IMG/VR virus record: IMGVR_UViG_3300022543_000001 | Coordinates: 26,204-90,203 of that record | DNA: 64,000 bases | Source of the DNA: a virus | Lineage: Duplodnaviria; Caudoviricetes | Direction: 5' to 3' (one strand) | Part shown: piece by piece, positions 24,550-61,939 of the stretch | Layout of the letters: each line of letters opens with the position of its first letter | Position numbering within the stretch: position 1 is the stretch's first letter | The notes under the pieces: model-generated | What the model was told of the DNA's origin: nothing | The model's input: the letters and a program-made list of their open reading frames with translations, nothing else | The model's database searches: none | Position numbers and translations under genes: made by a program

Positions 24550-27500
24550 TTATAGTAAAAATGGAAGCCATGAACTGATGTCAATATAACCACTATTGTT
24601 ACCTATTGAACCACCTCTTTTTGCTTCTTGTTGTGTTCCATACATAGTGTTTGCCATATTTGGATCTGGTGCAGTACTTGTTTTACCTGACTTACCTTGT
24701 GAATTCATAACTCTTGACATACATGCTGAATGATCTGTTGCATTAGGATTGTTTTGTTTACACCAATCCATTGCTTCTTGCATTGTCATTGCACTACTAG
24801 CACCTTGTCCATTAACTGTTTTAGGAGTTGGATTAAAAGCCATTCTTCCACCTACAGTAGGATCAACTTTATAGTTAGGATACATCTGATTTAATGCATC
24901 TGTTTTCCACTTATTAGTAATACCTTGAGTATAATAGTTTCTAACATTGTTTCTCATTGCTAATTTAGCATTGTCAAACTGTTGATTAGCAACTGTATTT
25001 TGATCATATAATCTTTGATTAGTTGCTTGATTCAACATACTACTTTGATTCCTAATGTCATTTGCTTTTAACTCAAATTGATTAGCAATATTAACATTAG
25101 CATTATTATACTTAGACAATATATCAGCAGCATTTTTAGCAGCAGCACCCTGAACACTTGATGATCTAGCAGACAAAGCTTGAGGTCCAGCAAACTGTGC
25201 CATAGCATTTGTTTGAATAGCTGCTTGTTCAGCATTAGCACCAAGTTCTCTTGTAGGATCTTGAAATACTGGTCTTGGTACACCCAATGCTACTGGAGGT
25301 GCAGCTGGCATTCTTTTCTTAAGACCCATTAGATCTCCAAATGCTCCTGTAGTTTTGATAGTATCTTGTAACCACATTCCAGGAGGTTGTCCTGGTACAG
25401 GGATAGTTGAATCTTCTTGACAAGGAGGACAATTACCATTTGCATCAGCAGTCATCTCTATTACAGTACCATCAGCTTTTTGACATGGACATGGTTTACC
25501 TTTTGGTGGTTCACATGTACAGTTACCTTGAGCATCTTTTGGTTTATAATTAGGTTTATTTGGATCATCACATTGACATGGTTCTTCTCCAGGTACATCC
25601 TCAAATTTTAAATCATGTACAGCTTGAATTTCTCCTTGTGTTGTGTTTGTATAGTATGCATCAATAGGAGAAATGTTTGTTACATTCATTCCTTTCTCAT
25701 CACTGAAACCAACTTGTTTACCATAAGGATTAAATCCGGAGAAACTTGTAATACCTAATAATGCTGTTTGTGTATCTTCATCATAGTTACCTGGATTTGC
25801 ATCAAGGTCTTTCATTAATTTATCAGCTGCAATAAACCCAGCCTGTTGTATATAGGCTTCTTCAGCATAAGCATCATCAGCTGAACCTGATAAGTATTTA
25901 TTACCAGCTTTATCAGTTTTTACTTTTCTTTCCATAGGTAAACCCATGTCTTTTGAAAGCTTATCTAATGAAGTAAAACCAGATGACTCAACTTTTTTAT
26001 ACATCTCTGTGATCTCTTGATCAGTTGCATTTGGATTTGTTTGTTTTATAATACTCTTAAATCCTAATTCATCTCCATCAATTTTACCATTTTTATTTTT
26101 ATCTGGTTGATCTTCCATTGGTCTTAATTCACCATTTCCATCTTTGTACAAATGAGGACCAAAACCTTTTACTCCAAGTTTATCACCGTAAGTTGTAGTT
26201 TTCAAGTTACGTTCTTGCATTCTAAGATACTTAGATACAATCTCGTCATCAGTTAAGTCGTTAGGATCTTTTTTAAATTTCTTTTGATAAGTTTCAGAAT
26301 ATGAATCTCTTTTTCCTTTGTATGCTTCTTGATCAGCTAATGTTCCTCTTACTTGTTTTGCAAATGCAGCTTTAGCTTTAGGATCATTAAATGTTTGTTG
26401 CATTGCTTGAAATGTAGCAGCAGCAACTTGGTTACCATTCCATTTATCTAAATCAGTTCCTGTATATTTATCAAAACCTGTAGCAGAAACTTTTTGCTCT
26501 ACTCTTCTACCATCAGGTTGTATAACATAAATTTTTTCTTTACCTCTACCTCCTTGAACATAAGCTCTTCTTAATGCTTGTTTAAACTCTTCATCTGTTT
26601 TATAATCAGCACGTTTAACTTCAACACCATCTCTAGCTTTAACCATACGTGTTATAGGACCAGATCCAGGAATTCTTTTTGGTCTACCTTGATAGTTTTG
26701 AGACATACCTGCACCCATTGACATACCATACTCTGCTTCTGGTATATCATAGAAAGGCATATCATAACCACCCATAGACATTCCATAGGCAGCCATTGGT
26801 GGTGCCATTTGTTCTTCTTCCATAGGAGGTTGTTGACCCATTCCTTGTTCTTGTCCACCTTGACCTTGAGACATAACTTCTTGAATAAGACCTACAGCCT
26901 CTTCTTGAGCTACACCCATTTGAGTAAATATTTGCACTATAGCTTCAGGTGGAAGACCATTCTGTAATAAACTCATAACAACTTCAGCAGGTTCAGCACC
27001 TCTTTGTAGAGCACCTTGAACTTCTTGCATAATCTGCATCATCTCATCTTGACCACCACCTTGTTGTTGACCTTGAGCTTGTTGTTCCATCATTGCCATT
27101 TCTTCAGGAGATGGTTGTTGCATACCTTCTGCAGCTCTTCTTAATCTTCTCATACCACCACCATACATCATCATCATCTCTTGTTGAGACATAGGTTGTT
27201 CTTGAGCTTGTGCAACTGGTTGACCTTGATTCATTTCTTGAGCTTGCATCATTTGATTTTGCTCATTCTCTGATTCCATTGTCTGATCTGAATTCTCCTG
27301 TTGTTTCATTTGTTTCTTCAACTGGTCATTCAATACACTAATCTCTTTAGATGGTAAGATCTGTTCTTCTGTAAGACCTCTAGCTTCCATACAAGGTTTA
27401 GCAACAGCAGGAATTCCTTGAGGAAAACCTTTCATTGATTCTTGTGCCAAAGCTAAACATCCTAACTTAATGACATATTTTTTCATCATTAATTCAGCAG

Positions 27501-27975
27501 ACTTTCTTTCTATAGCATCAGTATCAGGATCTTCTAAGATTTTTCTGTACTTCTGGATATCATATTGTTTAGCAAGTTCTGCAGGAGTAAAAGATTTACC
27601 TTTACCTGTTTTACCAAACATAGAAAGTACATTAGGATCTTTTATCAGCATACCTCTAGTATCACTGAAAATAAAAGTATCTTCTGGTAAGTTTAATGGA
27701 ACACCGCCTGCACTATGTCTTGGACCTTTAATGATTTGTTGTTCCGGCATTCCATCACCATTGATGTCTCCGTATACAGTTTCACCACCCTCTGCTTCCA
27801 AGTTAGCCTCATCTCTAGGTACTGCAGTAATGTATTTACTTGCAATAAGTTTTGGTTTTCCTATATAAGCATTATAATCTGCTCCACCCATTGCTGGAAC
27901 ATCATTTACTAAAGCACCTTGGACTTGGTATCCAGTTTTTGCTTGAGGTACTTTTTTAATTCTAACTTTTATCAT
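24550..27975 (-). CDS. Internal virion cargo protein (1141 aa) with EAEGGE/GPRHSAGG domain, Gln/Met-rich linker, EF-hand-like loop and Cys-rich modules
   Basis: ORF track; low-complexity, modular composition; C-terminal region (DPTRELGANAEQ...NANVNIANQFE) resembles crAss-like cargo proteins by recollection. Confidence 0.6.
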   Translation of the reverse strand: MIKVRIKKVPQAKTGYQVQGALVNDVPAMGGADYNAYIGKPKLIASKYITAVPRDEANLEAEGGETVYGDINGDGMPEQQIIKGPRHSAGGVPLNLPEDTFIFSDTRGMLIKDPNVLSMFGKTGKGKSFTPAELAKQYDIQKYRKILEDPDTDAIERKSAELMMKKYVIKLGCLALAQESMKGFPQGIPAVAKPCMEARGLTEEQILPSKEISVLNDQLKKQMKQQENSDQTMESENEQNQMMQAQEMNQGQPVAQAQEQPMSQQEMMMMYGGGMRRLRRAAEGMQQPSPEEMAMMEQQAQGQQQGGGQDEMMQIMQEVQGALQRGAEPAEVVMSLLQNGLPPEAIVQIFTQMGVAQEEAVGLIQEVMSQGQGGQEQGMGQQPPMEEEQMAPPMAAYGMSMGGYDMPFYDIPEAEYGMSMGAGMSQNYQGRPKRIPGSGPITRMVKARDGVEVKRADYKTDEEFKQALRRAYVQGGRGKEKIYVIQPDGRRVEQKVSATGFDKYTGTDLDKWNGNQVAAATFQAMQQTFNDPKAKAAFAKQVRGTLADQEAYKGKRDSYSETYQKKFKKDPNDLTDDEIVSKYLRMQERNLKTTTYGDKLGVKGFGPHLYKDGNGELRPMEDQPDKNKNGKIDGDELGFKSIIKQTNPNATDQEITEMYKKVESSGFTSLDKLSKDMGLPMERKVKTDKAGNKYLSGSADDAYAEEAYIQQAGFIAADKLMKDLDANPGNYDEDTQTALLGITSFSGFNPYGKQVGFSDEKGMNVTNISPIDAYYTNTTQGEIQAVHDLKFEDVPGEEPCQCDDPNKPNYKPKDAQGNCTCEPPKGKPCPCQKADGTVIEMTADANGNCPPCQEDSTIPVPGQPPGMWLQDTIKTTGAFGDLMGLKKRMPAAPPVALGVPRPVFQDPTRELGANAEQAAIQTNAMAQFAGPQALSARSSSVQGAAAKNAADILSKYNNANVNIANQFELKANDIRNQSSMLNQATNQRLYDQNTVANQQFDNAKLAMRNNVRNYYTQGITNKWKTDALNQMYPNYKVDPTVGGRMAFNPTPKTVNGQGASSAMTMQEAMDWCKQNNPNATDHSACMSRVMNSQGKSGKTSTAPDPNMANTMYGTQQEAKRGGSIGNNSGYIDISSWLPFLL

Positions 27976-27983
27976 CGGGTTCT

Positions 27984-30900
27984 TTATAAATATTCAACTT
28001 GTCCTCCTGCTGCTAAGAATTGTTCTAATTCTTCTGGAGTCATATATACTTCTTCGTCATCCATGTAGCCACCATTTTGCATGTAACCACCATATTGAGC
28101 AGCATTACTATTTGCATAATTACCAAATGTTGCTCTACTGTTTCTGTCGGATCCCATTTCATCATATCTAAACATACCTGTTTTAGAACCAATATCTCCC
28201 CAGTCACCTTTATCAGTTTGAGTAGATGCCATTACATTAGCCATTGGATCAAACTTGTCTAACAACATGTTATTTTCAATAGGTGCATTCTGTGCTCTTT
28301 CATACATACCTAATCCAAAATTAGCTGCACTATTAAAAGCATTAACTCCTGCTTCACCATCAAAGTTTCTAGCTGTTTTACGTTGTCTTTCTACACCAAC
28401 ATATTGATTTTGATTAGGTGCAGGTGTGGGTTCAGGTGCTTGTGGAATAATTTGTTGACCTTGACTACCTACTGTATTACCAGTATTTGCAGTTTCAGCA
28501 TAAGAACCTGTTCCAGTCTGAGTTATAAAACTAAATGGGTTTTGTTGTTGAGGCATTTTATTTGGTGCAGGAGCTCCAAACAAATCATTTTCAAATTGAG
28601 ATTGTTGAGAATATGGATTATAGCCTGATTGATTTTGACCAGCACCCATACCAAAGCCAGTACCAACTTCAAAAGCACCACCCATTCTTTTAAAAGAAGG
28701 ATTTTTAACTCTATCCACTAAACTTTTTAATGTACCATATGCATTCTTTACATTATCAACTGCATCTCTAGCACCATAATAAGCTTGATCAGTCTTGTAT
28801 CTAGCACCACGTCCTTGTTCATATCTCTCTGCTTGTCTTAGATTTCTTTGACCACGTCTAGTTTGTTCATCCCATTCTTGATCACTAAATTGAAATCTTT
28901 CTTTTGCTGCATCTTCTAAACGATCTCTTCTACTTGTCTTTTCAGGTTTCTCATTATCCTTGTAATTAACCATAGACCAACCATCTTGAAGTGCATCTTT
29001 TACCATTCTTTTAGTAATACGACCAGGATTAGATTTGTTTCCTGAACCTCTACGGTTATCTAACATACCTTCAAGTTGTGCTAAATCACCCATAGGAACT
29101 CCAGTACCATCACCATCAACTTGATAGATATCAATCCATTTTTTTCTACCACCTAGCAAACCTTTCTTGGTTGTATAACTAGCAACAGGTTTATCTGGAA
29201 TAAGACCATTGTAAGATCTACCATCATTTAAATAATATGGAGTACCCTTTTGTTTAACCCAAGATCCAGCTGATCCAACTATTGGATTCCATGGTAATAA
29301 GTTACGTCCGTAACTACCTGGATTTGGAACTTGTGTAAAGTTATAATTCATTTTTGCTATAGGAATACACATTTTATATTTATCATTCCAAACAGTACCA
29401 GGACCACACTGAGTCTTTTTTGGTTGCAAGCTTGCACTTGAGTTTAATACACAAGCACTTCCATTCCAGGTATATCCTGCTGGACACTTCTCAGTACTTC
29501 CTTCTTCTTCTTCCTCTTGACCTTCTCCACTGTAAGCAGCATAATCATTCAAAGTCTTATTATAGAAGTCAAGATAGTTATCATAATCTTCTTTTCTAGA
29601 AGGGTCACTTTTCCATGATTCAAAATCTCCTTCTGGATTTGCAGCTTGCCAATCTTCTTTTTCTCCTTCTGCCCACTGATCAAATGGTAATTCATCAGCC
29701 ACTGTTCTATGTTCTCCAGCTTGATTTAAAATATTTATACCATCTCTAGCTTGTTCTAGATCATATGGTTCATAGTATTCACTCTCATCACCACCATATA
29801 TAAATCTAACAAGTGGTTCTTTAGCATCCATATCCACAAATCCTCCAAATGCTGCAGTAAAATCTGTATTCATTTGTTCTTCTTCAGCAAGATTTTCTTT
29901 ATAACCATCTTGCATCAGCATGTTTAAAATCTTTGGATTGTTCTGAGCATTCTTGTAAATATCTTTTGATATAGCTTTATTAGAATTATTTTTTAATGTA
30001 CTAATAAAAGAAGATTTCATGTTAGCAACATCATTTGTCAAAGTATCTTTTCTATTACCTTGACCTAAAGTTGCATCTCCACCTTCAGCATACATAGAAA
30101 CCATTCTATCAATAAATCTATTTTTAGAAACACCACCTTTTGCAAAGTCATTTGGCAAAGCTACATTTTGTGTATTTGGATTTACAATATTTGAATCTTG
30201 ATATCTATAGTAATTATAATCACTTGGAGTTTGTCCTTTTAAGAACTTCATACTATCAGGTGTCTGTAATGTATTTGGATCAACAGTAACTCCTTCTCTA
30301 ATAGGAGTAGGATCTAAAACTCTACTTGGTCCTACATCAGTACCACATGTACATTTACCAAGAGCATTTTTAGGTTGGAAGTTTGGTGCATTAGGATCCT
30401 CACATTGACAAGGATGTGCTAATGCATCATAAGTATTATAACCAACATAACCTAAACCACCACCAATAAGTGTAGTCTTTAAACCTAATCTATACTTATA
30501 GTTAATAGCATTCTTAATATCAGATGCTGTTTGTGAATAAGGAATAGCAGCAGGATCTTGAATGTTTGGTCCAAGAGCCATGTTTGCATAACCATATACA
30601 GGTTGATCAATATTTTCAATTCCTTTTGCACCAGTTCTGAATAATTGGTTTAATCCAGTTGTTCCATATGTTTCTAAACCTCTACCAATTTTTCCTCTAT
30701 TACTTAAATCATTCCATGTAGTTGGAGGTAAACCTGTTATATCAGTTCTTCTTACACCATTTATATCATCAAAATAATTAGGAAATGGAGTACGATTCAT
30801 ATCTTTTAAAGTTATATCACCCAACATTCCTGTTAATGAAGAACCAATTGGTCTTGTAACTTTTGATTTTGTTTGAACACCTGTTGTTAATGGATTACCT

Positions 30901-32318
30901 AATGGATCAAATACATTTAAACCACCAGTTTCAGGATTTTGATTATAATAGAATCTGTTTTTAAATGTAACCTCTTTAGCTTTTGGAGGAGTTGTACCAA
31001 AAGGTAAACTTTGATTAGGACCAAAAGTATATTTTAATTCAAAAAATTTATTTCCTGACTCATCTTCCCCACCAATAACTTTTGTTTGTGGAGGATATAC
31101 ACCACTAACTAAGCCCTCATGTCTAGACATAATGCTGTTAAGCTCTTCTAATGTAAAAGGTTCATTATTACCGTACTGTAATTTACTAATTAAATCTTTA
31201 ACATCTGCTTGATCTAATACTAACCTATCAGCTTGTAAGCTACCATCAGTTCCACCAGCATATGTTCCGTTCTGACTAAACACTCCTGTTTTTGGAGTAG
31301 CTCCATTAATAACATTCCAAAGTTCAGTTCTATTCTGTGTAAATGGAGTAGCTAATTTTGGAGCAAACTTTCCTCCTACATAAGGTAACCTAGTCATTGC
31401 ATCACCAATACCAGTAAATACAGGTAAAGCTTTACGTACTGTAGATATATTAGATAAAGGATTAGCTTTGTTAGCATATCCAACAGTTGGTATGTACTCA
31501 GCTAATTTTTGAAGTGCTGATTTAACAGGAGGTGTTTCTAATCCTAATCGTGCTTGTGGTAAATATTCTTGTGGTTGATAAGAATCAGATGAACTTCTGT
31601 AGTCACCCAGATAAGATGCTAGATCTGGAAATGCTTGCATCTCTTGTGTACCTGGTGTCATAGCAATTAAATCTTCCATAGAGAAAGGTTTTTCTTCAGG
31701 TGTTCTTCCTGGAGTACCATACTGACTCATTACAGCTTGTTCTTTACTTGGTTCTTGATTAGGATTCATATCTTCAAATTCAGGATACTCTCCACCATCA
31801 TCAAAGTAACCACCATATTTAAAAGCTTCTTCCTCTTCATCCTGTGTCATTTCCAAAGCAGAATTCTGATTCATCTGTGCATCTTCTTCATCATATAGAC
31901 CACCATCAGATATTGCTAATTCTTCTTGTTCTGCATCTGAAGCTGCTCTTTCATTTTCTTCATCTGCTTGTTGTTGTGGATCAACACCTGGTTCTGGTTG
32001 AGCTTTATCTTTAACTACTTCAGGATCTACATAACCTTCTTCAGCAAGTTTAGACATAGCAGATTTAATAAGCATCACAGATGTATTCTCATCTAATGCA
32101 TACTCATTAATAAGTTGATTATATAAAATATCAGGTGTAGCATCATTTTTTAATGATATATAAACCTGATCATATATTTGATTTAGTTTAGCTGGATCCA
32201 TACTTGGAGCTGCTACTTCCATACCCATTGCTGCTTTTTTTAAAAACTCAGCAGTTTTGTTATAGTACCCTGGAGTTTCACCTGGAAGTGCTTTTCTAAT
32301 CCTTACTTGTTTCTTCAT
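27984..32318 (-). CDS. Internal virion cargo protein (1444 aa), modular and low-complexity, many xxxGG motifs
   Basis: ORF track; acidic/Gln-rich linkers, Cys mini-domains, shared terminal motifs with neighbouring genes. Confidence 0.6.
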   Translation of the reverse strand: MKKQVRIRKALPGETPGYYNKTAEFLKKAAMGMEVAAPSMDPAKLNQIYDQVYISLKNDATPDILYNQLINEYALDENTSVMLIKSAMSKLAEEGYVDPEVVKDKAQPEPGVDPQQQADEENERAASDAEQEELAISDGGLYDEEDAQMNQNSALEMTQDEEEEAFKYGGYFDDGGEYPEFEDMNPNQEPSKEQAVMSQYGTPGRTPEEKPFSMEDLIAMTPGTQEMQAFPDLASYLGDYRSSSDSYQPQEYLPQARLGLETPPVKSALQKLAEYIPTVGYANKANPLSNISTVRKALPVFTGIGDAMTRLPYVGGKFAPKLATPFTQNRTELWNVINGATPKTGVFSQNGTYAGGTDGSLQADRLVLDQADVKDLISKLQYGNNEPFTLEELNSIMSRHEGLVSGVYPPQTKVIGGEDESGNKFFELKYTFGPNQSLPFGTTPPKAKEVTFKNRFYYNQNPETGGLNVFDPLGNPLTTGVQTKSKVTRPIGSSLTGMLGDITLKDMNRTPFPNYFDDINGVRRTDITGLPPTTWNDLSNRGKIGRGLETYGTTGLNQLFRTGAKGIENIDQPVYGYANMALGPNIQDPAAIPYSQTASDIKNAINYKYRLGLKTTLIGGGLGYVGYNTYDALAHPCQCEDPNAPNFQPKNALGKCTCGTDVGPSRVLDPTPIREGVTVDPNTLQTPDSMKFLKGQTPSDYNYYRYQDSNIVNPNTQNVALPNDFAKGGVSKNRFIDRMVSMYAEGGDATLGQGNRKDTLTNDVANMKSSFISTLKNNSNKAISKDIYKNAQNNPKILNMLMQDGYKENLAEEEQMNTDFTAAFGGFVDMDAKEPLVRFIYGGDESEYYEPYDLEQARDGINILNQAGEHRTVADELPFDQWAEGEKEDWQAANPEGDFESWKSDPSRKEDYDNYLDFYNKTLNDYAAYSGEGQEEEEEGSTEKCPAGYTWNGSACVLNSSASLQPKKTQCGPGTVWNDKYKMCIPIAKMNYNFTQVPNPGSYGRNLLPWNPIVGSAGSWVKQKGTPYYLNDGRSYNGLIPDKPVASYTTKKGLLGGRKKWIDIYQVDGDGTGVPMGDLAQLEGMLDNRRGSGNKSNPGRITKRMVKDALQDGWSMVNYKDNEKPEKTSRRDRLEDAAKERFQFSDQEWDEQTRRGQRNLRQAERYEQGRGARYKTDQAYYGARDAVDNVKNAYGTLKSLVDRVKNPSFKRMGGAFEVGTGFGMGAGQNQSGYNPYSQQSQFENDLFGAPAPNKMPQQQNPFSFITQTGTGSYAETANTGNTVGSQGQQIIPQAPEPTPAPNQNQYVGVERQRKTARNFDGEAGVNAFNSAANFGLGMYERAQNAPIENNMLLDKFDPMANVMASTQTDKGDWGDIGSKTGMFRYDEMGSDRNSRATFGNYANSNAAQYGGYMQNGGYMDDEEVYMTPEELEQFLAAGGQVEYL

Positions 32319-32335
32319 AACATGTTATATATATA

Positions 32336-32346
32336 AATATACTAAA
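32336..32346 (-). promoter_or_regulatory. Recurrent intergenic motif TTTAGTATATT (putative late promoter)
   Basis: One of five near-identical copies located in intergenic gaps upstream of genes. Confidence 0.5.
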
Positions 32347-32375
32347 TTTTAATTTAATCAATACACTTTAAAAGT

Positions 32376-35300
32376 TTACACATCTTCAATAATGTAACCA
32401 TCTTCAATGTACTTATCTATTTCTTTTTTAGATAAATTAGTTACCACACCACCTTTTTTATAATCTCCTCTAAACCCTGTATTCCATCTGTTCATTAAAG
32501 ACTTTTTATATGCTTCCATATCTAAATAATCTTCAGCAGACATATTCTTCAAATCATTAAATTTAAAAGTGGGATCAATAATTCCAATTTGATTACCTTT
32601 ACCACCAGCCCATATACGCATATCTAATCCAGAACCTTCAATACCCTTTCTACCTGGATCAGCAAAATAAACCTTATTAGGATCTAAATTATGACGTACT
32701 CTTCCATCTTGATTATATATACGGTTTTTACCAAGTATATACTGCTCAAATAAATCTTGCCAGTTTCCTGAATCAAGATCCATATCTTGTTTTACTTTAA
32801 ACTGATAACGACCATATTGTTGTGGATTAGGAGTACCTGCAAAATATAAACCATCCATTCTAGACATATCTGGTAAACCTGCTCTATAACCATATTGATC
32901 CATAGGAACACTTGTAGCTTGATAAGCAGCTAAAGAAAGAGGATCTTCCATATTAACACCTTTAGCAATCATGTTTTCATATTCACTTAAAGGATTACCA
33001 CTTGCTATTTCATACATATTATATTGACCATGGTTTCCATAATTATCTAATCTATTCCCTATAGGATGAAATTGTCCAGATACTTGTCTAAAACCTGTTC
33101 TATCATAGTCAATTGCACTTTGCATAAATTTCTTCAAACTCTCATCTGACTTAGCAGCTTTTAACATATCTGCTCCCATAGTCTGAGGTCCTGCATAACC
33201 TAATTCTTTTAAACCCTGAATAATATTTCTTCTTTCTGTAAAACCAGGTAAAGTATTTATAATAGGAGTGACTATTTTTGTTGAAGGTTTGATAGTACCA
33301 CTTAAACTTTCTGCAATAACTGGTAAACCAGTTCTAGCTTTAACTAAACCACCATTATCATAACCAAGTAATGGATAACTACCTGTTCCAAGATAACCTT
33401 TGGGATTTTGTTCTAGTATAGAAAACTCTCCTAAACCTAATCTTTTACCTACTTTATTTATAGGATTGGTTATAGATTCATAAATTGGTTTTGCTCCAGT
33501 AATATTTGGATTACCTAGAACAAGACCAGAACCAGGTGTGGCTGCATTGTATACACCTGTAAATCTAGAAGGTATATTACCAACTGCTACAGTACCAGGA
33601 GTACGTAATGAGTTTAATGTTTGTAATGTACCTACAGCAGGTTTTATACCTTTTATAATAGGAGCTGCACCCAATGCTCCTTCAAATGCATTTAAAGCAG
33701 CAGTTCCGTAATTACCTTGTTGAAAATTATCATAGGCATTAGAAATATTTTCTGGAGTTTTTGCTACAAACCCTGCAGTAAACAAAGGACTATTAAATGC
33801 TTGTAATCCTTGTTTCAATCCTTGCTTTAATCCTGGTGCTGAACCTAATGCATTAAAGCCTTTCATGATACCTCTTTTTGTACCTATATCAAATAACTCA
33901 TCTCCTACAGCACTTAAAAATTCTCCTTTGTCATAACCTTTTCTTAAATTGGTTCCAATCTTAAAAGGATTTAAAGCTTGAAGCAAAGTATAATCTCTAA
34001 TTATAGCAAGAGGATTATCATTAGGCATAAGTCCTGCATTCTCATCACCAAATTTTTTTGCAATATCTTTTCTTGTTTCATAACTTTGTGCATTATTTCC
34101 CCACATTTCTTCACGAGGATTCATTGCAAAATATGCAGCATCAAATGGATTAGCTAATACATCTCTTATTTTAGAAGCTGTAGTGTTTTCATTAATACCA
34201 GTTCCTTGTTTTATTGTGTCAGGATTTAGTTCACGCATAAGCATAGCATCCACACTACTGTTTAATATATCATTGTAGGTTTCCTTTTTATTACCAGTTT
34301 TTTGTGTTAGTAATTTTTGCATTGCTTCATCAGGGTTCTCTTGAAATGATTTTAATATTTCAAGTTTACCTTGTTGTGTAGAACCTACTTTATCTAATGC
34401 TTGTTTAAGAACTTGTTTAGTAGCATCTGATCCAAAATTACCAATGTATGCTGCATAAGCATCATTAAAGTCTTTAGCTTTAGCTGTGTTTGCAGCTGCT
34501 AGTGCATTCTTTTGATTTAAAGTTTGGTTTAATGATGCATTGTTTTGTCTAACATTAGCCATAGCATCATCTTTTGCAAAAGTAAGTCCATCATACTGAC
34601 CTGCTTTTCCATACTTATCCATCCAATCTGAATAAGCTTTTTCACCTCTTTCAGTTTTTTGAGATTGATAATTAATAAAGTCTCCTAAGTTATTTGTACC
34701 ACTATGATATCTTTTCTCCCATGCAGCCATTGGATCATCAGATTCTAAAAATATTTTACGATCCTGATCAACCTTAGCTCTATCAGTTCCAGGTAGAGAA
34801 TCCATACTTGAAACAAGACTTGCATATGCATCATCTATTATTTTATTTGTAGGTTTTTCAAATGTAGACTTAAGTCCAGATTGTGTTCCTATTTTAGGAG
34901 AGAGTTCTTTTATAACTTTGTCTACGGGTTTACCTTGCTCAATAGCTTTTGTTAGTATACTTTTAGTTACTTCAGCTTCATAGTTAGCTTTAGCTGCTCC
35001 CATTAAATCTCCAAGTTGTTCTTTAACTTGTTTAGGATCTAAACCCCAGTAGTTTTTAAATTGATCTGCTTGAAAACCATTTGTAATAATTCTATCTTTA
35101 ACTATGTTTAAAGGATATAATTCAACAAAGCCATCTTTCTTATGGACTAGAAAATTTTTCTTAAGTTCCTCTAATGTTTCTGGTGAATACTTAGATTCAG
35201 ATTCCCTTACATAAGGTTCTATTTTATCTTGTTTCTTAGATTTAGCAAATGTATCTAGATATCTAGCACTGTCATCTGCAACCCATCTATTATGTTCTTC

Positions 35301-35615
35301 ATTTGTTTTACTACGTATATCATTTATGTCTTTAACTAAACTTATTTTTCTTGCTAAAGATTTAGCTTCAAAGTCTTCTTGTTCTTTTTTCATCTCTGCT
35401 TTAGAAGCAGCAATATATTCTGATTCAGGTAAACATTGTCCATTAAACTCATACATACCTGGAGGACATCCTTCACCTCTCATATAACCTGGCAATGATT
35501 CATTCCAATATGATGGTTGCTGTACTCCTTGTACTTCTACCATAGGGGTATTATCTGATTTGACAATCTTACCTTTTTTAGCTTGTGGAATACTTGTTAT
35601 TCTGTACTTTGCCAT
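32376..35615 (-). CDS. Internal virion cargo protein (1079 aa), possible C-terminal ART-like module
   Basis: ORF track; shared N- and C-terminal motifs; Gly/Ala-rich hydrophobic middle segment; GLYFAG...QYGRY motif near the C-terminus. Confidence 0.55.
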   Translation of the reverse strand: MAKYRITSIPQAKKGKIVKSDNTPMVEVQGVQQPSYWNESLPGYMRGEGCPPGMYEFNGQCLPESEYIAASKAEMKKEQEDFEAKSLARKISLVKDINDIRSKTNEEHNRWVADDSARYLDTFAKSKKQDKIEPYVRESESKYSPETLEELKKNFLVHKKDGFVELYPLNIVKDRIITNGFQADQFKNYWGLDPKQVKEQLGDLMGAAKANYEAEVTKSILTKAIEQGKPVDKVIKELSPKIGTQSGLKSTFEKPTNKIIDDAYASLVSSMDSLPGTDRAKVDQDRKIFLESDDPMAAWEKRYHSGTNNLGDFINYQSQKTERGEKAYSDWMDKYGKAGQYDGLTFAKDDAMANVRQNNASLNQTLNQKNALAAANTAKAKDFNDAYAAYIGNFGSDATKQVLKQALDKVGSTQQGKLEILKSFQENPDEAMQKLLTQKTGNKKETYNDILNSSVDAMLMRELNPDTIKQGTGINENTTASKIRDVLANPFDAAYFAMNPREEMWGNNAQSYETRKDIAKKFGDENAGLMPNDNPLAIIRDYTLLQALNPFKIGTNLRKGYDKGEFLSAVGDELFDIGTKRGIMKGFNALGSAPGLKQGLKQGLQAFNSPLFTAGFVAKTPENISNAYDNFQQGNYGTAALNAFEGALGAAPIIKGIKPAVGTLQTLNSLRTPGTVAVGNIPSRFTGVYNAATPGSGLVLGNPNITGAKPIYESITNPINKVGKRLGLGEFSILEQNPKGYLGTGSYPLLGYDNGGLVKARTGLPVIAESLSGTIKPSTKIVTPIINTLPGFTERRNIIQGLKELGYAGPQTMGADMLKAAKSDESLKKFMQSAIDYDRTGFRQVSGQFHPIGNRLDNYGNHGQYNMYEIASGNPLSEYENMIAKGVNMEDPLSLAAYQATSVPMDQYGYRAGLPDMSRMDGLYFAGTPNPQQYGRYQFKVKQDMDLDSGNWQDLFEQYILGKNRIYNQDGRVRHNLDPNKVYFADPGRKGIEGSGLDMRIWAGGKGNQIGIIDPTFKFNDLKNMSAEDYLDMEAYKKSLMNRWNTGFRGDYKKGGVVTNLSKKEIDKYIEDGYIIEDV

Positions 35616-35617
35616 TA

Positions 35618-38600
35618 CTATATTTTTTCAAACGTATAACCTAATTTTTGTAACTTCTTCATAGTAGCTTCATCTATCTCATCTCCAAGTTCATAATCAA
35701 TAGAACCTCCTTGTTGAGCATATTGCATATCTTCTTGAGAATCATTTTTTGCAATATAGTTAAATAGATCTTTTAATCCTTGATCATCTTTTACAACTTT
35801 AAAAAGATTGTATAATGCATTATCATAGTTAGGATTATTTCTATCTAAAGCACCACTCTTCTCTGCCTCAGATCTCCAAGCCTTAATATCTTCATCTGTA
35901 ATAACCTGTGTTGGTTGAAGACCTTTGCTTTGTCTTACTTCAAATATTAAAGACTGTATGTTATCTTGACTAGGATCTGTAAGATAATCGTAATCCTCAC
36001 GAGCTTGTCTTTTTTCATCACCTTTTAAATGACCCCAACCTTCTTCAAAAGATTTTAAATTAGGTTGAATAATAATTTGTTCAGCAGGTAATATTTTATC
36101 ACCATATTTATCCCAAAGTCTAGTTCTTTCCTCATGTGCAATAGTTGCATTTAATTCTTTTGGATCGGACTTTAAACTTTCTTTTAGTAATATTTTTGAA
36201 GCTTCACCATCATCATTATAAACCAATTCTCCCATTACACTTGGATCATCAGCAATTATATCTGTGTATTCATATGGTACAGATTGATTTAACTCTTCCA
36301 ATAGTGGAGATTCAGGATTATATGCAGGTAAAAATTGTTTTAATGTACGTTCATATGATTTATTACCTATTTGATCAAAAGGTAATTGTCTATTGCTATA
36401 CCAGTTGCTAAAATAAGAATTTGCATTTATAGGTACTATATTAGGAATATCCTCTACCATAGGTGAATCAGACTCAATTGGTGCAGGTCCTCCATTTCTT
36501 GCTTGGTTTAAAGCACCTCCATATTTTCTTTCAGCATCTATTAACTTTTGTTTATTACCAGTAGTTAAATATTCTTCAAATGATTTTACTATTTTCTTTT
36601 CAGCTTCGTTTTGTTGTTCTTGATTTTTTGAAGCAGCTTTCAAATATGACATTATCAAAGCATCATCAAGATCTTTATATAACTCATGCTGTTTTATTTT
36701 ATTTACATCACTCTCATCAAAAACTGTTATCTCTCTTGGATCAAAAGCACCTGTAAAACCTTTATCTCTTAATGCATCAGCAGCTTGCATTTGACTTGTT
36801 CTAATCAAATCTTCATTACCTGTTGGATTAAAACTAGTTCTTAAAGCTTGTTCATATTCATATGCATTTTGATAATTTCTTGGATCTACACGATTTATTA
36901 AACCTACTTTTTTTATAAAATCATTTGTCAATGGTGCATTATAATTTATAAAGTTTTCAGGATTATTAAATAAAGCTTCTGAAACATATGGTGTAAATGT
37001 CTTAGTTTGAGGCACTAAACCATAACCACCTAAACTACTCACTCTAGCGGCAGATGTAGCAAAGTCAGGATGTGGTGTTAAATACACACCACCTTCTTGA
37101 TTACCCAAACCACTACCTCTAAAAGATCTATCAAAATTTTTAAATGATGTTTTATGTCCAGTTAAACCACCAGTTATTATTGGTTGATTACCATCAAACC
37201 TGATTGGATTGTATCCACTATACTGAGTTAAGAAATCACTCTCTAACATAGGAACTGTTTCCAATAGTTTTTTTGTTTGCTGTAAATCTAACTTAGGCAA
37301 TTCAAACTGAGCACCTGGTATAGCAGCTGGTAGATTAATCTGATTTGATAAACCTTTTAAATAATTATCAGCTACATAGTTTAAAGCAGGTAGATTTTTA
37401 CTTACAGATCCTAAACTTCTAAGTGATTTTATTAAATTAGAATTTACTGCTACACCTAATTCAGGCCCAACTACTTTAGCAACACCACCTAAATTATATC
37501 TTCTAGTAAGTTTATAATTTGGAATTCTTATTTCACCTGTATTACTTCCTGGAATAAGTTCTAAATAAGCTTTATCTGTTAAACCTCTACCTTGTAAATC
37601 TGCATTCAGTCTACTAATCATTTCTTCAGCAGCCTTTGGATTCCATTGTCTTACTGAACGAAATCCTTGTGGTACTCCTTCAATACCATCAAATAATTTA
37701 CTGTGTTCAGCTGTAAAATTTAAAGGGATATGATTTTCAAATTTCATGTCCCAATCTTTTTTATTTGCCATATTTAGTAAAAGATTGTATGAATCTAAAC
37801 TTAAACTATATGGTTCTAATATAGAAGGGTTAGGTAGAGGAAAAGCATCATTAGCTAATTTCATTGCCCTACCTGCTTCTAAAGGACTAGTCATCTTAGT
37901 TGCAAAATGAAAAACATTATCCTCTGTTTTATTATTAGGATAAACAGATAAATAACCACTATCACTAGTTATTGTAAAAGGAAGTTTTAATTGTTTTACA
38001 TCAAAATCAATAGGTAATTTTTTTAAATCTACTATACCACGTTCTATAGGTAATATAGTCATAGCTCCACTAGGAGGTGTTATAAGAGTTCTTGATGCAG
38101 GTCTTGCTCCTGCTTTAACAATTTTACCTAAGTTAGCTTTAGTAAGTTTTGGTACAGATATATCTTCTACTATAAAACCACCTTTAGCATACTCTTGTAT
38201 TTCTTCAGGAGTAAGTTCTGTTTCTATGAATGCTGGTGAAACATTTTTATAATTCTCTGCAAAATACATTGCATCTTCAGGATTATCAAATCTCATTGCT
38301 TCTGCAGATTCAGGACTATAATCTCCTAACATAAGTTGACCATTAACATCTTGAATCTGTGGTACAGCATAGTTATCCATACTAGCCATGTAATGAGTAC
38401 CTGTATTACCGTCTTCAAATTGATATGGTTGATCTGGTGCAACTATCATCCTTTGAGCTGCAGGATTACCATGCATATTAGCATAAGCTAATCTAGCTTT
38501 CATCATAGTATTATTAGCAGCATCAATATCTTCTTGAGATATAATACCACCTTCTTGTGCATGTACTGTTCCTTGACCACCACACTTATGACATGTAGTA

Positions 38601-39154
38601 ACATCATCACCACCATCAGCTGCATCCCATTTCCAACCACACTTCTTACAAGTTACCTTCTTAGTAAGTAAAGCACCACCTTCTTTTTTTTTATTTTGGA
38701 AATTATCTGGAGTTTCTAAAGTAGGGTCGTTGTCTTCGTAATAGTTACCTGCTATTTCTTCTCCTGGTTGAATGTTCTTAAGAGCTCTTAAATATCTTTT
38801 GTTACCTTGAATTATAGAACCAGCATTGAATGCATCATCAGAATGATTGTAATATGTCCCTATGATAGGAGTCTCTTTACTTTTTAGGTATGTTTCACCA
38901 TTCTTTTGGAAAGATGATTTAATATGTGAAAGACCAATTATCTCTCCAGCTCTAATTGGTTCATCAGCAAATAAACCTTTACCTTGTATGTTAGATTTTT
39001 GTACACTAACTTTCTTGTAAGGTTTCTCATTTAAACCACCGTTACTCATCAAAGGGTTTCCACTTGGATCTACCAACATGTCTCTTCTTTTAACAGGTGC
39101 TTTAGCACTACCAAGATTTTTGAGTGAATCAATAAGAACTTTTTTATTATACAT
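35618..39154 (-). CDS. Polyvalent cargo protein (1178 aa): SET domain, CxxC Zn finger, two unknown domains, ART-PolyVal-like domain, degenerate zincin
   Basis: GKGLFADEPIRAGEII...YYNHSDD...RALKNIQPGEEIAGNYY (SET); CKKC...CHKC; GHKTSFKNFD...GSGLG...GGVYLT...LRDKGFTG...EITVFD (ART-like); IAHEERT. Confidence 0.75.
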   Translation of the reverse strand: MYNKKVLIDSLKNLGSAKAPVKRRDMLVDPSGNPLMSNGGLNEKPYKKVSVQKSNIQGKGLFADEPIRAGEIIGLSHIKSSFQKNGETYLKSKETPIIGTYYNHSDDAFNAGSIIQGNKRYLRALKNIQPGEEIAGNYYEDNDPTLETPDNFQNKKKEGGALLTKKVTCKKCGWKWDAADGGDDVTTCHKCGGQGTVHAQEGGIISQEDIDAANNTMMKARLAYANMHGNPAAQRMIVAPDQPYQFEDGNTGTHYMASMDNYAVPQIQDVNGQLMLGDYSPESAEAMRFDNPEDAMYFAENYKNVSPAFIETELTPEEIQEYAKGGFIVEDISVPKLTKANLGKIVKAGARPASRTLITPPSGAMTILPIERGIVDLKKLPIDFDVKQLKLPFTITSDSGYLSVYPNNKTEDNVFHFATKMTSPLEAGRAMKLANDAFPLPNPSILEPYSLSLDSYNLLLNMANKKDWDMKFENHIPLNFTAEHSKLFDGIEGVPQGFRSVRQWNPKAAEEMISRLNADLQGRGLTDKAYLELIPGSNTGEIRIPNYKLTRRYNLGGVAKVVGPELGVAVNSNLIKSLRSLGSVSKNLPALNYVADNYLKGLSNQINLPAAIPGAQFELPKLDLQQTKKLLETVPMLESDFLTQYSGYNPIRFDGNQPIITGGLTGHKTSFKNFDRSFRGSGLGNQEGGVYLTPHPDFATSAARVSSLGGYGLVPQTKTFTPYVSEALFNNPENFINYNAPLTNDFIKKVGLINRVDPRNYQNAYEYEQALRTSFNPTGNEDLIRTSQMQAADALRDKGFTGAFDPREITVFDESDVNKIKQHELYKDLDDALIMSYLKAASKNQEQQNEAEKKIVKSFEEYLTTGNKQKLIDAERKYGGALNQARNGGPAPIESDSPMVEDIPNIVPINANSYFSNWYSNRQLPFDQIGNKSYERTLKQFLPAYNPESPLLEELNQSVPYEYTDIIADDPSVMGELVYNDDGEASKILLKESLKSDPKELNATIAHEERTRLWDKYGDKILPAEQIIIQPNLKSFEEGWGHLKGDEKRQAREDYDYLTDPSQDNIQSLIFEVRQSKGLQPTQVITDEDIKAWRSEAEKSGALDRNNPNYDNALYNLFKVVKDDQGLKDLFNYIAKNDSQEDMQYAQQGGSIDYELGDEIDEATMKKLQKLGYTFEKI

Positions 39155-42100
39155 TACCTAGGAGAAAATTGATTTTTACTATTAGACATTTTAAAAATTA
39201 TATTGACATCATCACCTTGATGTTTTTTCAAATTGATAAAATTCAAATAATGTCTAAACTTCTTTCTTTGCATTTGTGGTTTACTATAATCCAAGTTATT
39301 TGGGTTTAATATTCTAGTAAATCCATCTGGCCCAGTTATCCATGTATTCTCTGAAGAATAAGATCCTTGAAGAACTGTTGTTCCTGGAACTACCGGTCCT
39401 GTTGGTGGATAGTTTGATCCTATAGGAAACTCTGCTCTTTGTTTTGTCACATCCCAGAATTGGTTAAACCTATACTTGTTCTCTTCTTTAGAGAAAAGTA
39501 TATCATACGATGATAGGTTTGCATTTAGTTTTGGATACTGTAATGATTCATTAACATTGTTTTTAGGATAGATGTTAAGGTTAAGGTATCCGGAAACTTG
39601 CTCTGTATTATATACTACAGCTCTATCAAAGTTATAATCTAGTACATGATGTTGATCAACACAACTATCACCACGTCTTCTGTATGCCTCTAGTATATAT
39701 TCAATAGACCTAGTTGTCATTACAGATTGACCAGTTACAACAGGGAATTCAATTTCATAACCATACTGTGTACCATAATAATTACAATAGCCATCACATA
39801 TGTAATTATGTTTCCATAGAGTATTCTTTTTACTACTGATAAAAATATCTTTTGTAGGAATCATTAAATCTGGATGCCATTCATGGAATGATATAAAGAA
39901 TTGATTCTTAGGGTCATAGCTTATTGTCCATGATGCATCATCAAATAAATAAGGATCACCTAAATTAAATCTTAAATTTTGTTGACCGTCTACTATAAAA
40001 TCATCACCTGTACCATCTGGATTAAGATCTCTATACTCTACTCTTCCTTTGAATTGAGGTTTTAGCTGATAATCTTTTTTAGTAAAATATAAGATAGTAC
40101 TTGAACTATCATAAGTAGATTGACAACCAATACCAGCAACAGGATTATCTTGCCATGGATAGTCAGGAAAATCATCTGTTAATTTATAAGGCATATACAA
40201 TACAAACCACCATTTCATTCCAGATTGAGAAATTTCCTGCAGTCCTTGACCATAAGAAAAAATTCTGCCCTGATTCTGAGACATGTAGAATAACCCTACA
40301 GGAGTAGAAATTACTGATAGTCTATTCTGAGAAGAACCATATTCATATGCATTATCTGCATTAGTTACAGATTGCTGTGGTTGACTAAATAAAAGTCCAT
40401 CACCAATAGTAAGCTTAGTACCTAAATCAGTTTCTAATGTATCAGTACCTTGGAACATCAATGGGCTTTCATTTTTGAATGTAATGAATATACCACTTTT
40501 GTTTACTGATTTAACACCTGATATCTGACCTGTAAATTCTTTATAGTTATTTACTAAGTAAACAAACCAACTATCTTTAATTGCTTCCATTTGTTGAGGC
40601 AATGAGTAGATGATTCTATCTGGATAATATGTATAACATAACTTAGCTACATTAGGATCATAGTATCTACTTTGCACACTTCCAGCAGAAAAATATTGGT
40701 TATAAAGTTTTGATACACTTAATGAGTAATCATAGATATACTCACTAAGCATTCCCATAACATTAGGATTCATATTAAACATTGCTCTGTAATCAGTATA
40801 TCTATACGGATCATAGTGTTTACCTCCTTCTATTGGACTTTGTTTTCTAAAGTCAACAATAACTTCAGACTCTACAAAAAAGTCTCTAATACCTGAATTA
40901 GCTAAATAAAAATATGCTTCCTTTACAGACCATAATCCTCTATATCTATCACCTAATAATCCACTTGGTTCTGATACGTCAGTTGCATAATTATATCTTC
41001 TAGTAGCATTTACATAATAATCAAGATTGTAAAAAGAACCTGGATATGCACCAGTACCTGGTGTAGCTGGTGAAGAAAAGTTAAATACTTCTGATAAAAA
41101 ACCAACATCATATCTGATACTATTTACTTTAAACCTTGTTAAAGGAATCATACTGTGTAAATAGTAGTTATACTCAAAACCATCTGGTTGACCATATAAC
41201 CAATCATAGAAAAACATCATATTATTTTTCTCAGTGTACCTGTTTATATAAGTATCACCACCAAATAATATAGGTGTTCTACTAATAACTTTAAAGTTAT
41301 AGAAAACATTATCAATTGGACATGTCCAACTTGGTTGAGCTATAGTATAATTTTTTAATTTTTGCTCACATGGTGTAATTGTAATTTCATTTTCACTACC
41401 AATTTGACCATACTGATTTCTAACTCTACCTTTTAATCCTCCATAATGACTAGCAATTGGTAAACTAAAAGGTTTTGTTTTTGAATCCTCCTCAAAATTA
41501 GGAAGGTTATTATTTATAAATGCAGAGTTAGTACTGTTTTGAACAATAGTTCCTAATGTAACTAATGACTTATCTGTTATACCTGATGTAATTAAATTTG
41601 GACCAATAGTTACACCGTTAGGATATACTCCGTTAAAGTAAGGACCTGATTTAGTTCTTACTACAACAGCATCAGATCTTTTTAAGTTGTTTATATTGTA
41701 ACTAATAAATGTCCCTGTGTTAGTTTGATACTTAGGAACCTCTTGTACATTGTCTCTAATATAAAAACTATCTTCTATTCTAAATCTACTTAATGCTGTA
41801 GTAGGTAAACTTGTCATGTTACCATAAAAACCATGACTTACTTGTTGTAATGCATATTGTTCGTATTGAACAAAAGCATAAAATGTTCTTAATACTAAGT
41901 CAGCACCCTCTGCAAAATAAAATGATATAGCATTTAATGCACCTAAAATTCTTGAAGCAGGATCTAAATAAGCAAACTTAGGTAATTCAAGACTACCAGA
42001 AACAGCCATTGGTGATACACCAGCATTATTAGCTGCACCATTAACTGTTGACACAAAAAGACTTTCTGCATTAGCAGCAGCAGTATTATCATAACCAGCA

Positions 42101-57031: not shown

Positions 57032-57274
57032 TTACTTTTTCTTAGCTTTTCTTTTTGCACCAGTAATGATATCTGCTCTTGTAATTTTATTTTTTGGAGC
57101 AGCTAATGCAGCTAACTTAGCACGTTTTGAAACAGTACCACCTTTTTTCATCATTCCATTTTTACCATCTGTTTGACCAGCACCAGCAGCATAAGGAATA
57201 CCAGCAGCAATAGAACCACCTTTTGCCATTTTCTTTTTGTTCATTGCACCTCCGCAACTCATACAATTACCCAT
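57032..57274 (-). CDS. Small Lys/Gly-rich protein (80 aa)
   Basis: ORF track; MAKGG and MKKGG motifs; KITRADII motif; poly-Lys tail. Confidence 0.7.
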   Translation of the reverse strand: MGNCMSCGGAMNKKKMAKGGSIAAGIPYAAGAGQTDGKNGMMKKGGTVSKRAKLAALAAPKNKITRADIITGAKRKAKKK

Positions 57275-61914: not shown

Positions 61915-61939
61915 TCTTGTTGGTTTTATGTTATACTTC

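Follow-up and report, generated by a model that had tools for sequence, protein, structure and literature searches.

The present analysis concerns a 64,000-nt stretch of the viral record IMGVR_UViG_3300022543_000001 (positions 26,204 to 90,203; hereafter the window), and in it a row of four long open reading frames (ORFs) whose products contain short recurring glycine motifs of the types G-G and A-x-x-G. The record is a 90-kb viral contig that is rated 75% complete and has a plus-strand replication arm at its left, and every large ORF of the window is located on the minus strand. It was assigned to the crAss-like phages based on Pfam matches to the crassvirus muzzle (PF25731), the ring proteins 1 and 2 (PF24228/PF25702) and the capsid protein (PF23898); the portal gave a weak match to a P22-type portal model, which was below the cut-off (E 6e-4). 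The muzzle gene is followed on the same strand by ORFs of 1178, 1079, 1444 and 1141 aa, a 1060-aa protein and three giant proteins, and no Pfam family was matched in the giant-protein block. The four ORFs (24550-39154) are thus placed between the muzzle gene and this block. Judged from this gene position, the encoded proteins are probably carried in the particle, and they are called cargo proteins A, A2, B and C here, in gene order. Cargo A2 is an optional gene among relatives. Pfam and PHROGs searches with the four proteins, their sub-domains and module pieces yielded a SET domain as the sole match, and DUF3945 (E 0.19) was not accepted as a match. The coordinates of all features are listed in Table 1.

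An earlier note on this DNA had listed 32 pentapeptides of the types xxxGG and [K/Q]-A-x-x-G and had proposed that they punctuate the cargo proteins at domain boundaries. All 32 are present, once each, in the respective proteins. The enrichment was verified for two sharper versions of the motif, and not for the loose xxxGG. Bare G-G was found 46 times in the four proteins, compared to 39.7 +/- 5.6 times in composition-preserving shuffles, and thus occurs at chance level. In contrast, [F/Y/W/M]-x-x-G-G was seen 15 times (4.6 expected) and [K/Q]-A-[K/R/Q]-x-G seven times (0.8 expected), and neither number was reached in any of 200 shuffles. A comparison of cargo with non-virion ORFs had been suggested as a check: the sharper patterns are enriched in the cargo and at chance level in the replication arm, and they are at chance level also in the giant proteins. 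The two patterns were picked after inspection of the sequences, and the shuffle figures therefore overstate the significance; the conservation data described below are free of that weakness. In 143 representative proteins that contain the module described below, the sharper pattern was seen 720 times versus 125 expected. The sequence logo over 1043 non-redundant G-G contexts has L at position -6, F/Y/M at -3 (37%) and Q/K/A at -2, followed by the two glycines.

The motif is also present in small basic proteins of the head block, as had been claimed, and in their counterparts from relatives. Its density reaches up to 7 sites in 222 aa in this group. The protein encoded at 57032-57274 and its relatives L033, L034 and L035 also have a conserved C-x-x-C-G-G a few residues past the initiator Met.

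A lack of conservation across homologues had been named as a result that would speak against the motif; the motif positions were found to be conserved. For the 1444-aa protein, 24 full-length homologues with a mean identity of 0.58 were compared; the conservation of the motif G-G was 0.995, versus 0.77 for other G-G, 0.72 for all Gly and 0.45-0.83 for the flanks. The 1178-aa protein was aligned with 31 mosaic relatives, and the mean column identity was as low as 16%. The near-invariant columns of this alignment are the motif glycines and the C-terminal 25 residues, and conservation reaches 90% or more at G202, Y322, G325, G326, G556 and G888.

The location of the sites relative to folded domains was analyzed with an AlphaFold2 (AF2) model of the 1178-aa protein. 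It contains confident domains at residues 41-148, 373-553 and 907-1136, and the remainder has predicted local distance difference test (pLDDT) values below 50. All nine motif sites of this protein are situated in 10-residue blocks with pLDDT below 52, most of them at the edge of a confident domain. The SET domain was detected by Pfam (E 5.7e-06), and Foldseek matched domain 41-148 to vSET/SETD8; nothing beyond the SET matches was found when Foldseek was run with this model. The motifs had been reported to bracket SET, Zn-finger, ART-like and zincin-like modules. Of these, the SET domain was confirmed and the Zn ribbon can be recognized from the sequence; no Pfam support at E up to 1 was found for the ART-like and zincin-like modules.

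The family of the 1178-aa protein is mosaic: 315 relatives with lengths of 647-2062 aa have 8-100% of its length in common, at 33-97% identity. The aligned pieces end at residues 153-162 and 203 and start at 309-310, 882-888 and 1132-1147. In the comparison with the gene of the closest relative, L025, the nucleotide identity is 94% up to residue 153, is lost over the Zn-ribbon cassette, and is 85% from residue 218 onwards. The BLAST alignments contain 413 internal breakpoints, and 61.5% of them are within 12 residues of a site listed in the earlier note, whereas random site sets reached 17.8% on average and 47.5% at most (2000 trials). Both the low-pLDDT linkers beside confident domains and the breakpoints place the motifs at domain boundaries, as had been proposed. 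The 1178-aa protein contains five further G-G that had not been listed. Three of them are without any breakpoint, and the two in the Zn ribbon are 10-21 residues away from a listed site, so that their breakpoint counts are inseparable from those of that site. Direct DNA repeats at the motif sites within this genome are weak (33-35 nt at 76-77%), and the sites were therefore rejected as recombination signals; selection acts on the protein and not on a recombination sequence.

In most relatives, the first cargo protein has about 140 conserved residues in its N-terminal region (G-Q-W-x-x-P-G ... K-K-G-G in the A3 consensus, then a basic spacer that ends in Q-x-G-G). In the 1178-aa protein of the window this region is shortened to about 40 residues.

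The relatives contain a repeated unit of about 30 residues, hereafter called the module. It consists of a short acidic strand, the sequence L-[T/S]-x-x-E-I-x-x-Y-x-x-G-[G/Y], and a strand of three hydrophobic residues, E-E and a further hydrophobic residue. A search of 1.84 billion proteins with a 43-position profile yielded 922 cluster representatives at E<=1e-3, of which 345 also passed E<=1e-10. Among the 143 best-scoring matches, which range from a few hundred to 2700 aa, two to four copies per protein are present, and in 118 of the 143 proteins (83%) a module lies within 8 residues of the C-terminus. The copies differ with their position. Internal copies continue into P-x-[A/M]-[Q/K/R]-x-G, the second motif of the earlier note, in 94 of 225 cases, and into a further [F/Y/M]-x-x-G-G in 85 of 225 cases. 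In copies at the C-terminus, D, N or Q frequently takes the place of the first G in the second G-G, and the next six residues show strong conservation. In the window, C-terminal copies close the 1178-, 1079- and 1444-aa proteins, and one internal joint is present in the 1178-aa protein; Y322, G325 and G326 mentioned above belong to this joint, and a cluster of breakpoints was found at 306-351. In 35 module-bearing proteins that were analyzed with Pfam, SET occurs together with the cell-wall enzymes VanY, lysozyme, SLT, Amidase_2 and YkuD. The module itself had no match above threshold in Pfam, PHROGs or the Protein Data Bank (PDB). The best PDB profile match (E 0.12) was to the helix-Gly-strand start of PhyH enzymes and hints at a local shape only. 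Pfam DUF7210 was rejected, because the C-terminal module of one relative scored 23.2 bits versus a cut-off of 27, and no match was found in this genome at E up to 10.

Table 1. Genes, motif sites, joints and tags of the cargo region and of the head block. Coordinates refer to the window. HSP, high-scoring segment pair; i-E, independent E-value.
Feature	Coordinates	Strand	Evidence
Muzzle protein gene; start of cargo row	39154..44694	(-)	PF25731 crAss_MUZ, E 1.5e-27
Cargo protein A, 1178 aa, mosaic (polyvalent)	35618..39154	(-)	SET, Zn ribbon, at least 3 more modules
Cargo protein A2, 1079 aa	32376..35615	(-)	No family; orthologues L027, L029, L001, L013 keep motif sites
Cargo protein B, 1444 aa	27984..32318	(-)	96 homologues, near-invariant termini
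Cargo protein C, 1141 aa	24550..27975	(-)	Relative encoded in 339 viral contigs
1060-aa protein next to cargo C	21311..24493	(-)	Conserved start M-A-T-Y-L-Q-G-V-T-D-Y-I-P in nearly all of 50 loci
80-aa basic head-block protein, two M-x-K-G-G sites	57032..57274	(-)	L033, L034, L035 counterparts keep 3-7 sites
142-aa protein, K-A-R-x-G near N-terminus, G-G seven residues before C-terminus	56444..56872	(-)	L037 counterpart keeps both
1178 aa, residues 36-40: G-G stop before SET	39035..39049	(-)	pLDDT 32 -> 72 at residue 41; HSP starts cluster at 42-48
1178 aa, residues 156-160 and 199-203: two G-G stops flanking Zn-ribbon cassette	38546..38689	(-)	64 and 57 breakpoints <=12 residues away
1178 aa, residues 309-343: internal joint, module then P-x-L-T-K-A-x-x-G	38126..38230	(-)	Profile i-E 9.5e-10
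1178 aa, residues 553-557: G-G stop closing domain 373-553	37484..37498	(-)	pLDDT 89 -> 42; G556 >=90% conserved
1178 aa, residues 876-889: G-G stop and Q-A-R-x-G-G before domain 907-1136	36488..36529	(-)	HSPs of many relatives start at 882-888; G888 >=90%
1178 aa, residues 1145-1178: C-terminal tag, class 1	35621..35722	(-)	17 near-invariant or invariant columns in A1
1079 aa, residues 1-15: basic N-terminal tag, ends in Q-A-K-x-G	35571..35615	(-)	Conserved in L027, L029, L001, L013
1079 aa, residues 752-763: G-G stop then K-A-R-x-G	33327..33362	(-)	Kept in L027, partly in L029
1079 aa, residues 1049-1079: C-terminal module	32379..32471	(-)	Profile i-E 4.3e-14, ends at last residue
1444 aa, residues 1-33: basic N-terminal tag	32220..32318	(-)	Near-identical in 90+ homologues
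1444 aa, residues 166-176: paired G-G stops	31791..31823	(-)	G-G 1.0 vs flanks 0.55-0.60
1444 aa, residues 255-259: L-P-Q-A-R-x-G site	31542..31556	(-)	L 1.0, P 0.96, A 0.96, G 0.92; neighbours variable
1444 aa, residues 725-860: four G-G stops and one Q-A-R-x-G site	29739..30146	(-)	G-G 0.98-1.0; last site A and G 1.0
1444 aa, residues 1210-1214: G-G stop	28677..28691	(-)	1.0 vs flank 0.45
1444 aa, residues 1405-1444: C-terminal tag, three conserved G-G	27987..28106	(-)	Conservation 0.98-1.0
1141 aa, residues 1-31: basic N-terminal tag	27883..27975	(-)	V4, R5, I6, P10, G15, G20, N24, G30 invariant in A4
1141 aa, residues 1117-1141: C-terminal tag, hydrophobic type	24553..24627	(-)	G1121, G1122, P1138 invariant

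In addition to the internal sites, the two ends of the cargo proteins turned out to be conserved, more so than any other part of these proteins. In the family of the 1444-aa protein the first approximately 33 and the last approximately 24 residues are near-identical in 90+ homologues (1055-1969 aa, 29-92% identity). Within the codons of these tags the identity of third positions is 0.67-0.83, compared to 0.88-0.98 for first and second positions, and the higher variability of third positions indicates selection at the protein level. Three of the four cargo proteins begin with a basic V-R-I-type tag, and the first protein of the row is without an N-terminal tag. The N-terminal tag of cargo C is present in at least 46 of 50 distinct loci.

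The termini of adjacent proteins follow a common rule, which was seen in nine diverse and 50 further distinct loci: an acidic C-terminal strand is followed by the Met of the next gene, one to four residues, and a basic strand of the K-V-R-I-K-K type, which is in turn followed by L-P-x-A-x-x-G or G-x-G. The mean net charge is -2.8 in the last 8 residues and +5.2 in the first 10 residues of the next protein (n=71). The co-occurrence of the two tags was quantified for 128 distinct adjacent gene pairs; the two-by-two counts were 15/4/3/106 (Fisher p 2e-13). The seven single calls are mostly misses of the search pattern, and at least one (L009) is truly without a C-terminal tag. At the B-to-C junctions of the 50 further loci, both tags were found in 43 cases, and in at least 46 by eye. 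At the A-to-B junctions of these loci, both tags were detected in 39 cases. By eye, none of the 41 A-to-B junctions with an acidic tag is without the N-terminal tag; the two that were missed by the pattern start with a K-V-I-V-Y-K-type sequence.

The class of a C-terminal tag depends on the next protein and not on its carrier. Cargo A ends with class 1 when it is followed by a protein of the M-A-K-Y-R-I-T type, and with class 2 when it is located directly before cargo B, and the class-1 tag always precedes an M-A-K-Y-R-I-T-type start. The hydrophobic tag of cargo C is always followed by the conserved start M-A-T-Y-L-Q-G of the next gene. The end-to-end pattern may thus extend past the four cargo genes, since the hydrophobic C-terminus of the 1141-aa protein (24553-24627) and the aromatic N-terminus of the 1060-aa protein (24452-24493) are each conserved in about 50 loci. 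The two tags can also be missing together. In the L090/L102 clade, cargo B is without the acidic tag and cargo C without the V-R-I strand, and in five of the 11 A-to-B junctions without an acidic tag the N-terminal tag is missing as well.

Internal joints are organized differently from the junctions between proteins. They run from the acidic strand straight into L-P-x-A-x-x-G; no internal copy of the basic strand was found in 359 proteins, in which it occurs at true N-termini only. Natural fusions of a C-terminal to an N-terminal tag were also absent from the 359 proteins. The spacer between the genes for the 1079-aa and 1444-aa proteins contains four in-frame stops and a hydrophobic stretch. 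Proteins encoded upstream of cargo B in L052, L060, L075, L013 and L099 have, where the acidic strand would be expected, a second, basic class of C-terminal tag, with the sequence G-G-D-x-x-K-L-x-K-F-x-x directly before the stop.

Taken together, these results firmly establish a system of connectors that is conserved at the protein level. It sets the limits of exchangeable modules and labels the two ends of successive cargo proteins. The motifs of the earlier note are the most conserved residues of this joint-and-tag system, which is common to the cargo (ejection) proteins of a large uncultured crAss-like clade. Three elements can be distinguished. The first is a G-G stop, [F/Y/M]-[Q/K/A]-x-G-G, in a disordered linker directly before a folded module. 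The second is the module of about 30 residues, in which a short helix is predicted to lead through a Gly turn into an acidic strand; it closes almost every cargo protein and is also used between modules. The third is the continuation L-P-x-A-[Q/K/R]-x-G, which follows internal modules and, with the basic strand M-x-K-V-R-I-K-K ahead of it, starts the next protein.

With regard to the function of the tags, the explanation that is put forward, tentatively and with a likelihood somewhat short of even, is that they dock consecutive cargo proteins to each other. In this model, an acidic C-terminal strand would pair with the basic N-terminal strand of the following protein. The cargo proteins would thereby form a head-to-tail string of beads that follows the gene order, and both the loading and the later passage through the tail would proceed in this order. 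Within one polypeptide the same joint would be a covalent version of this link between modules, and standard connectors on every module would allow exchange between phages without a break of the chain. The earlier note had offered a reiterated targeting or binding tag as one of its two interpretations. A role as a tag is supported by the conserved, co-occurring termini; end-to-end docking fits better than capsid targeting of the T4 type, because the first protein of the row is without an N-terminal tag and the C-terminal class follows the next protein.

Several observations speak against docking. AF2 predicted nothing but a short helix for the internal joint, with pLDDT around 30, and the model of the 1141-aa protein was too poor to be used (mean pLDDT 45.8). 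At six A-to-B junctions the N-terminal tag is present without an acidic tag upstream, and at several of these the upstream protein ends with the basic class of C-terminal tag. The junction counts are not independent events, because synteny is conserved in the clade, and the families could keep their own termini for separate reasons; likewise, the cases of common loss may represent just one or two evolutionary events. Docking also leaves the invariance of about 20 isolated internal G-G stops and of those in the small basic proteins unexplained. Lastly, no homologues from cultured phages were found when three of the four cargo proteins were compared by tblastn with 50,697 phage records.

The other interpretation of the earlier note was that the cargo proteins are polyproteins, and a search of the genome for a protease had been recommended. 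No C5, C48, C39 or S78 peptidase was found in the 75%-complete record, and no C39, C48 or S78 peptidase in two relatives that are 99-100% complete and have the same tag system. Of clan CE, PF00770 and PF02902 are absent from the record and PF02902 also from the two complete relatives, at a sensitivity at which divergent enzymes could escape. The C39 peptidase PF03412 and the prohead protease PF04586 are absent from the record and from five relatives, among which are the two complete ones; the prohead protease family PF03420 was outside this search. The 35 module-bearing proteins also contain no peptidase family. The sequence H-E-x-x-H is absent from the four cargo proteins. It was found only in two neighbouring giant proteins, for which no Pfam peptidase match was obtained, and in two proteins of the replication arm, one of which is of the DUF2201 type. 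In the giant proteins it is located at residue 206 of the frame at 1-3960, which is truncated by the window, and at residue 777 of the protein at 3962-13909. The former protein extends to the left of the window to 1978 aa and has a LysM domain. The DUF2201 protein (metallopeptidase-like and VWA-like) is encoded in the left replication arm at L031:13023-15523 and adjoins a weakly matching AAA ATPase.

These results have to be weighed against the possibility of maturation cleavage, in which a protease of the virion would cleave behind G-G and perhaps also behind the Gly that ends A-x-x-G. Enzyme modules would be freed, tags would be trimmed after loading and the small basic proteins would be cut to internal peptides, following the logic of T4 gp21 and the prohead proteases of giant phages. 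An invariant G-G (0.995) in a disordered linker that abuts the first residue of a folded module resembles a protease site, and the preferences at -3, -2 and -6 and the density of the motif in the small basic head-block proteins would be in line with this. Cleavage also accounts better than docking for the isolated G-G stops and the small basic proteins. In the relatives, peptidoglycan hydrolases (VanY, lysozyme, SLT, Amidase_2, YkuD) are joined in one chain to SET, although the compartments in which these enzymes act would differ. Zincin peptidases have been proposed as processing enzymes of polyvalent proteins (PMC5512222), two neighbouring giant proteins do have H-E-x-x-H, and ejection proteins of giant phages are known to be processed at several sites (PMC5694885, PMC10052503). 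On the other hand, none of the peptidase families searched for was detected, and the crAss001 structure paper makes no mention of protease or cleavage (PMC10172136). In the 1043 G-G contexts the hydrophobic residue (F/Y/M) is enriched at P5, and Q/K/A at P4, while proteases of the adenain or ubiquitin-like type have the hydrophobic residue at P4. In addition, the first Gly of the second G-G is often replaced in C-terminal copies, the next six residues are strongly conserved, and gene fissions occur after the acidic strand and not at G-G. The comparison with the proteases of adenovirus, African swine fever virus (ASFV) and vaccinia virus is an analogy only, because the protease searches were negative, the hydrophobic residue occupies P5 instead of P4, and the G varies in C-terminal copies. 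Cleavage is regarded as the main alternative to docking and as somewhat less likely than it; it should be noted that docking and cleavage are not mutually exclusive. Both could be combined in a wider version, which is judged to be unlikely: all particle-borne proteins would be joined by tags in gene order, the order would encode loading and ejection, the internal G-G would be cutting or recognition points at which the polyproteins separate in the host, and the connectors would explain the free insertion of cassettes.

Two further explanations do without docking and without cleavage. The motifs might be reiterated loading peptides that bind a repeated site of the procapsid (capsid protein, scaffold or portal), with avidity through copy number and no linking of cargo to cargo, in the manner of encapsulin cargo-loading peptides or the capsid-targeting sequence of T4. 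The motif is indeed present in all proteins that are expected to be internal, i.e., the four cargo proteins and the small basic head-block proteins, and the C-terminal location of the module and the disorder of the sites, which is usual for short linear binding motifs, are also compatible with loading peptides. The chance level in the replication arm and in the giant proteins points in the same direction, but the latter should also need loading and are without motif enrichment. As loading peptides leave unexplained why the C-terminal class follows the next gene, why the first protein of the row has no N-terminal tag and why adjacent termini have opposite charges, this explanation is considered quite improbable. 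Even less probable are passive linkers or recombination seams, i.e., flexible hinges that aid unfolding and threading through the tail, with breakpoints at these sites since linkers tolerate joints. The clustering of breakpoints and the predicted disorder would fit, but hinges need neither an invariant double Gly with a preferred aromatic residue three residues ahead nor a 30-residue module conserved over 922 clusters, and the weakness of the DNA repeats shows that the selection is on the protein.

The docking model can be compared with several known systems. One of them is the Bacteroides phage crAss001, for which the cargo proteins C1 and C2 (gp45, gp46) are expected to be kept in head and tail and to leave the particle partly unfolded (Bayfield et al. 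2023, PMC10172136). The authors proposed that the order of ejection depends on packing and on mutual interactions (PMC10172136). The gene site agrees with that of the four ORFs, as the crAss001 cargo genes directly follow the muzzle gene and precede the RNA-polymerase block (PMC10172136), with the giant-protein block of the window as the putative counterpart of the latter. The differences are that crAss001 has two cargo genes and this clade three or four, that the crAss001 cargo has no sequence match to the proteins of the window (tblastn of three of the four cargo proteins gave no homology to gp45/gp46), and that no motif, module or end-to-end tag is described in the passages on cargo of that paper, in which neither "protease" nor "cleav" occurs at all (PMC10172136). 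Polyvalent proteins (Iyer et al. 2017, PMC5512222) are likewise very long mosaic chains of several effector domains; their entry into the host together with the DNA is assumed, and their processing into separate domains was proposed (PMC5512222). They are defined by 2-15 unrelated effector domains in shuffled architectures, and the 1178-aa protein has such a composition, with SET, the Zn ribbon and at least three modules. In contrast to the present system, zincin peptidases are named there as likely processors and the words "linker", "glycine" and "crAss" are absent (PMC5512222), while the joint module and the tags found here are without a Pfam model.

T4, with its capsid-targeting sequences and gp21, and giant phages that process ejection proteins by a prohead protease (SPN3US gp245, phiKZ type) have in common with the cargo row a conserved N-terminal peptide on several internal proteins and a short motif that is reiterated in many proteins of the head interior. 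Their proteases cut after Glu and the protease gene is present, whereas in the cargo row the motif consists of G-G and the tags form complementary C- and N-terminal pairs, and the protease searches were negative. Adenain, ASFV pS273R, ubiquitin-like-specific and C39 proteases share the invariant double Gly after a hydrophobic residue. Here, however, the latter is at P5, neither clan CE nor C39 was detected, and the residues after G-G are conserved at part of the sites; C39 leaders have hydrophobic residues at -4, -7 and -12, from which the hydrophobic positions of the cargo motif are offset by one. The delimiters of polymorphic toxins (VENN in CdiA, the end motif of the Rhs core) are also short conserved peptides at a seam of module exchange, but these toxins are secreted, bacterial, accompanied by immunity genes and have a single seam, in contrast to many seams per predicted phage particle protein and paired terminal tags. 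The cargo-loading peptides of encapsulins are short, contain Gly, are usually C-terminal and sometimes repeated, and load an HK97-fold shell. They have no sequence similarity to the tags described here, which are predicted to pair with the terminus encoded by the neighbouring gene.

How crassviruses load megadaltons of protein and eject it in an orderly fashion is described as an open question in passages of the crAss001 (PMC10172136) and N4 structure papers. The connector family and the paired end tags represent a sequence-defined handle on cargo order in hundreds of genomes of uncultured phages. The connectors also reveal where effector modules are exchanged, which is useful for the annotation of very long "hypothetical" proteins, and a possible use is the loading of foreign proteins into phage particles. 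If cleavage at G-G should turn out to be true, a maturation protease must exist in a phage order for which none is known.

A few additional features of the region were observed. A 427-aa protein without a family is encoded between the portal and capsid genes (60658-61941). It is probably the scaffold, based on the weak evidence that its closest Atlas clusters with a name (0.81-0.83, which is chance level) are those of scaffolding proteins; an assignment as a Prp protease (Atlas score 0.81, also chance level) was not relied on. Nowhere in the cargo row is conservation higher than at residues 1-210 of the 1141-aa protein (27346-27975), where nine phages at 30-71% identity share dozens of invariant positions. 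No family match was found for this stretch, and the AF2 model has pLDDT below 35 for residues 1-100 and of only 50-73 for residues 101-210. It is followed at residues 215-400 (26770-27330) by a long Q/E/M-rich region of low complexity, the length of which is very variable among relatives. Lastly, the 1141-aa (25512-25588) and 1444-aa (30344-30420) proteins share a module of about 23 residues with four cysteines (C-x-C ... C-x-C), and its DNA, which is 77% identical over 77 nt, is the strongest direct repeat of the region.

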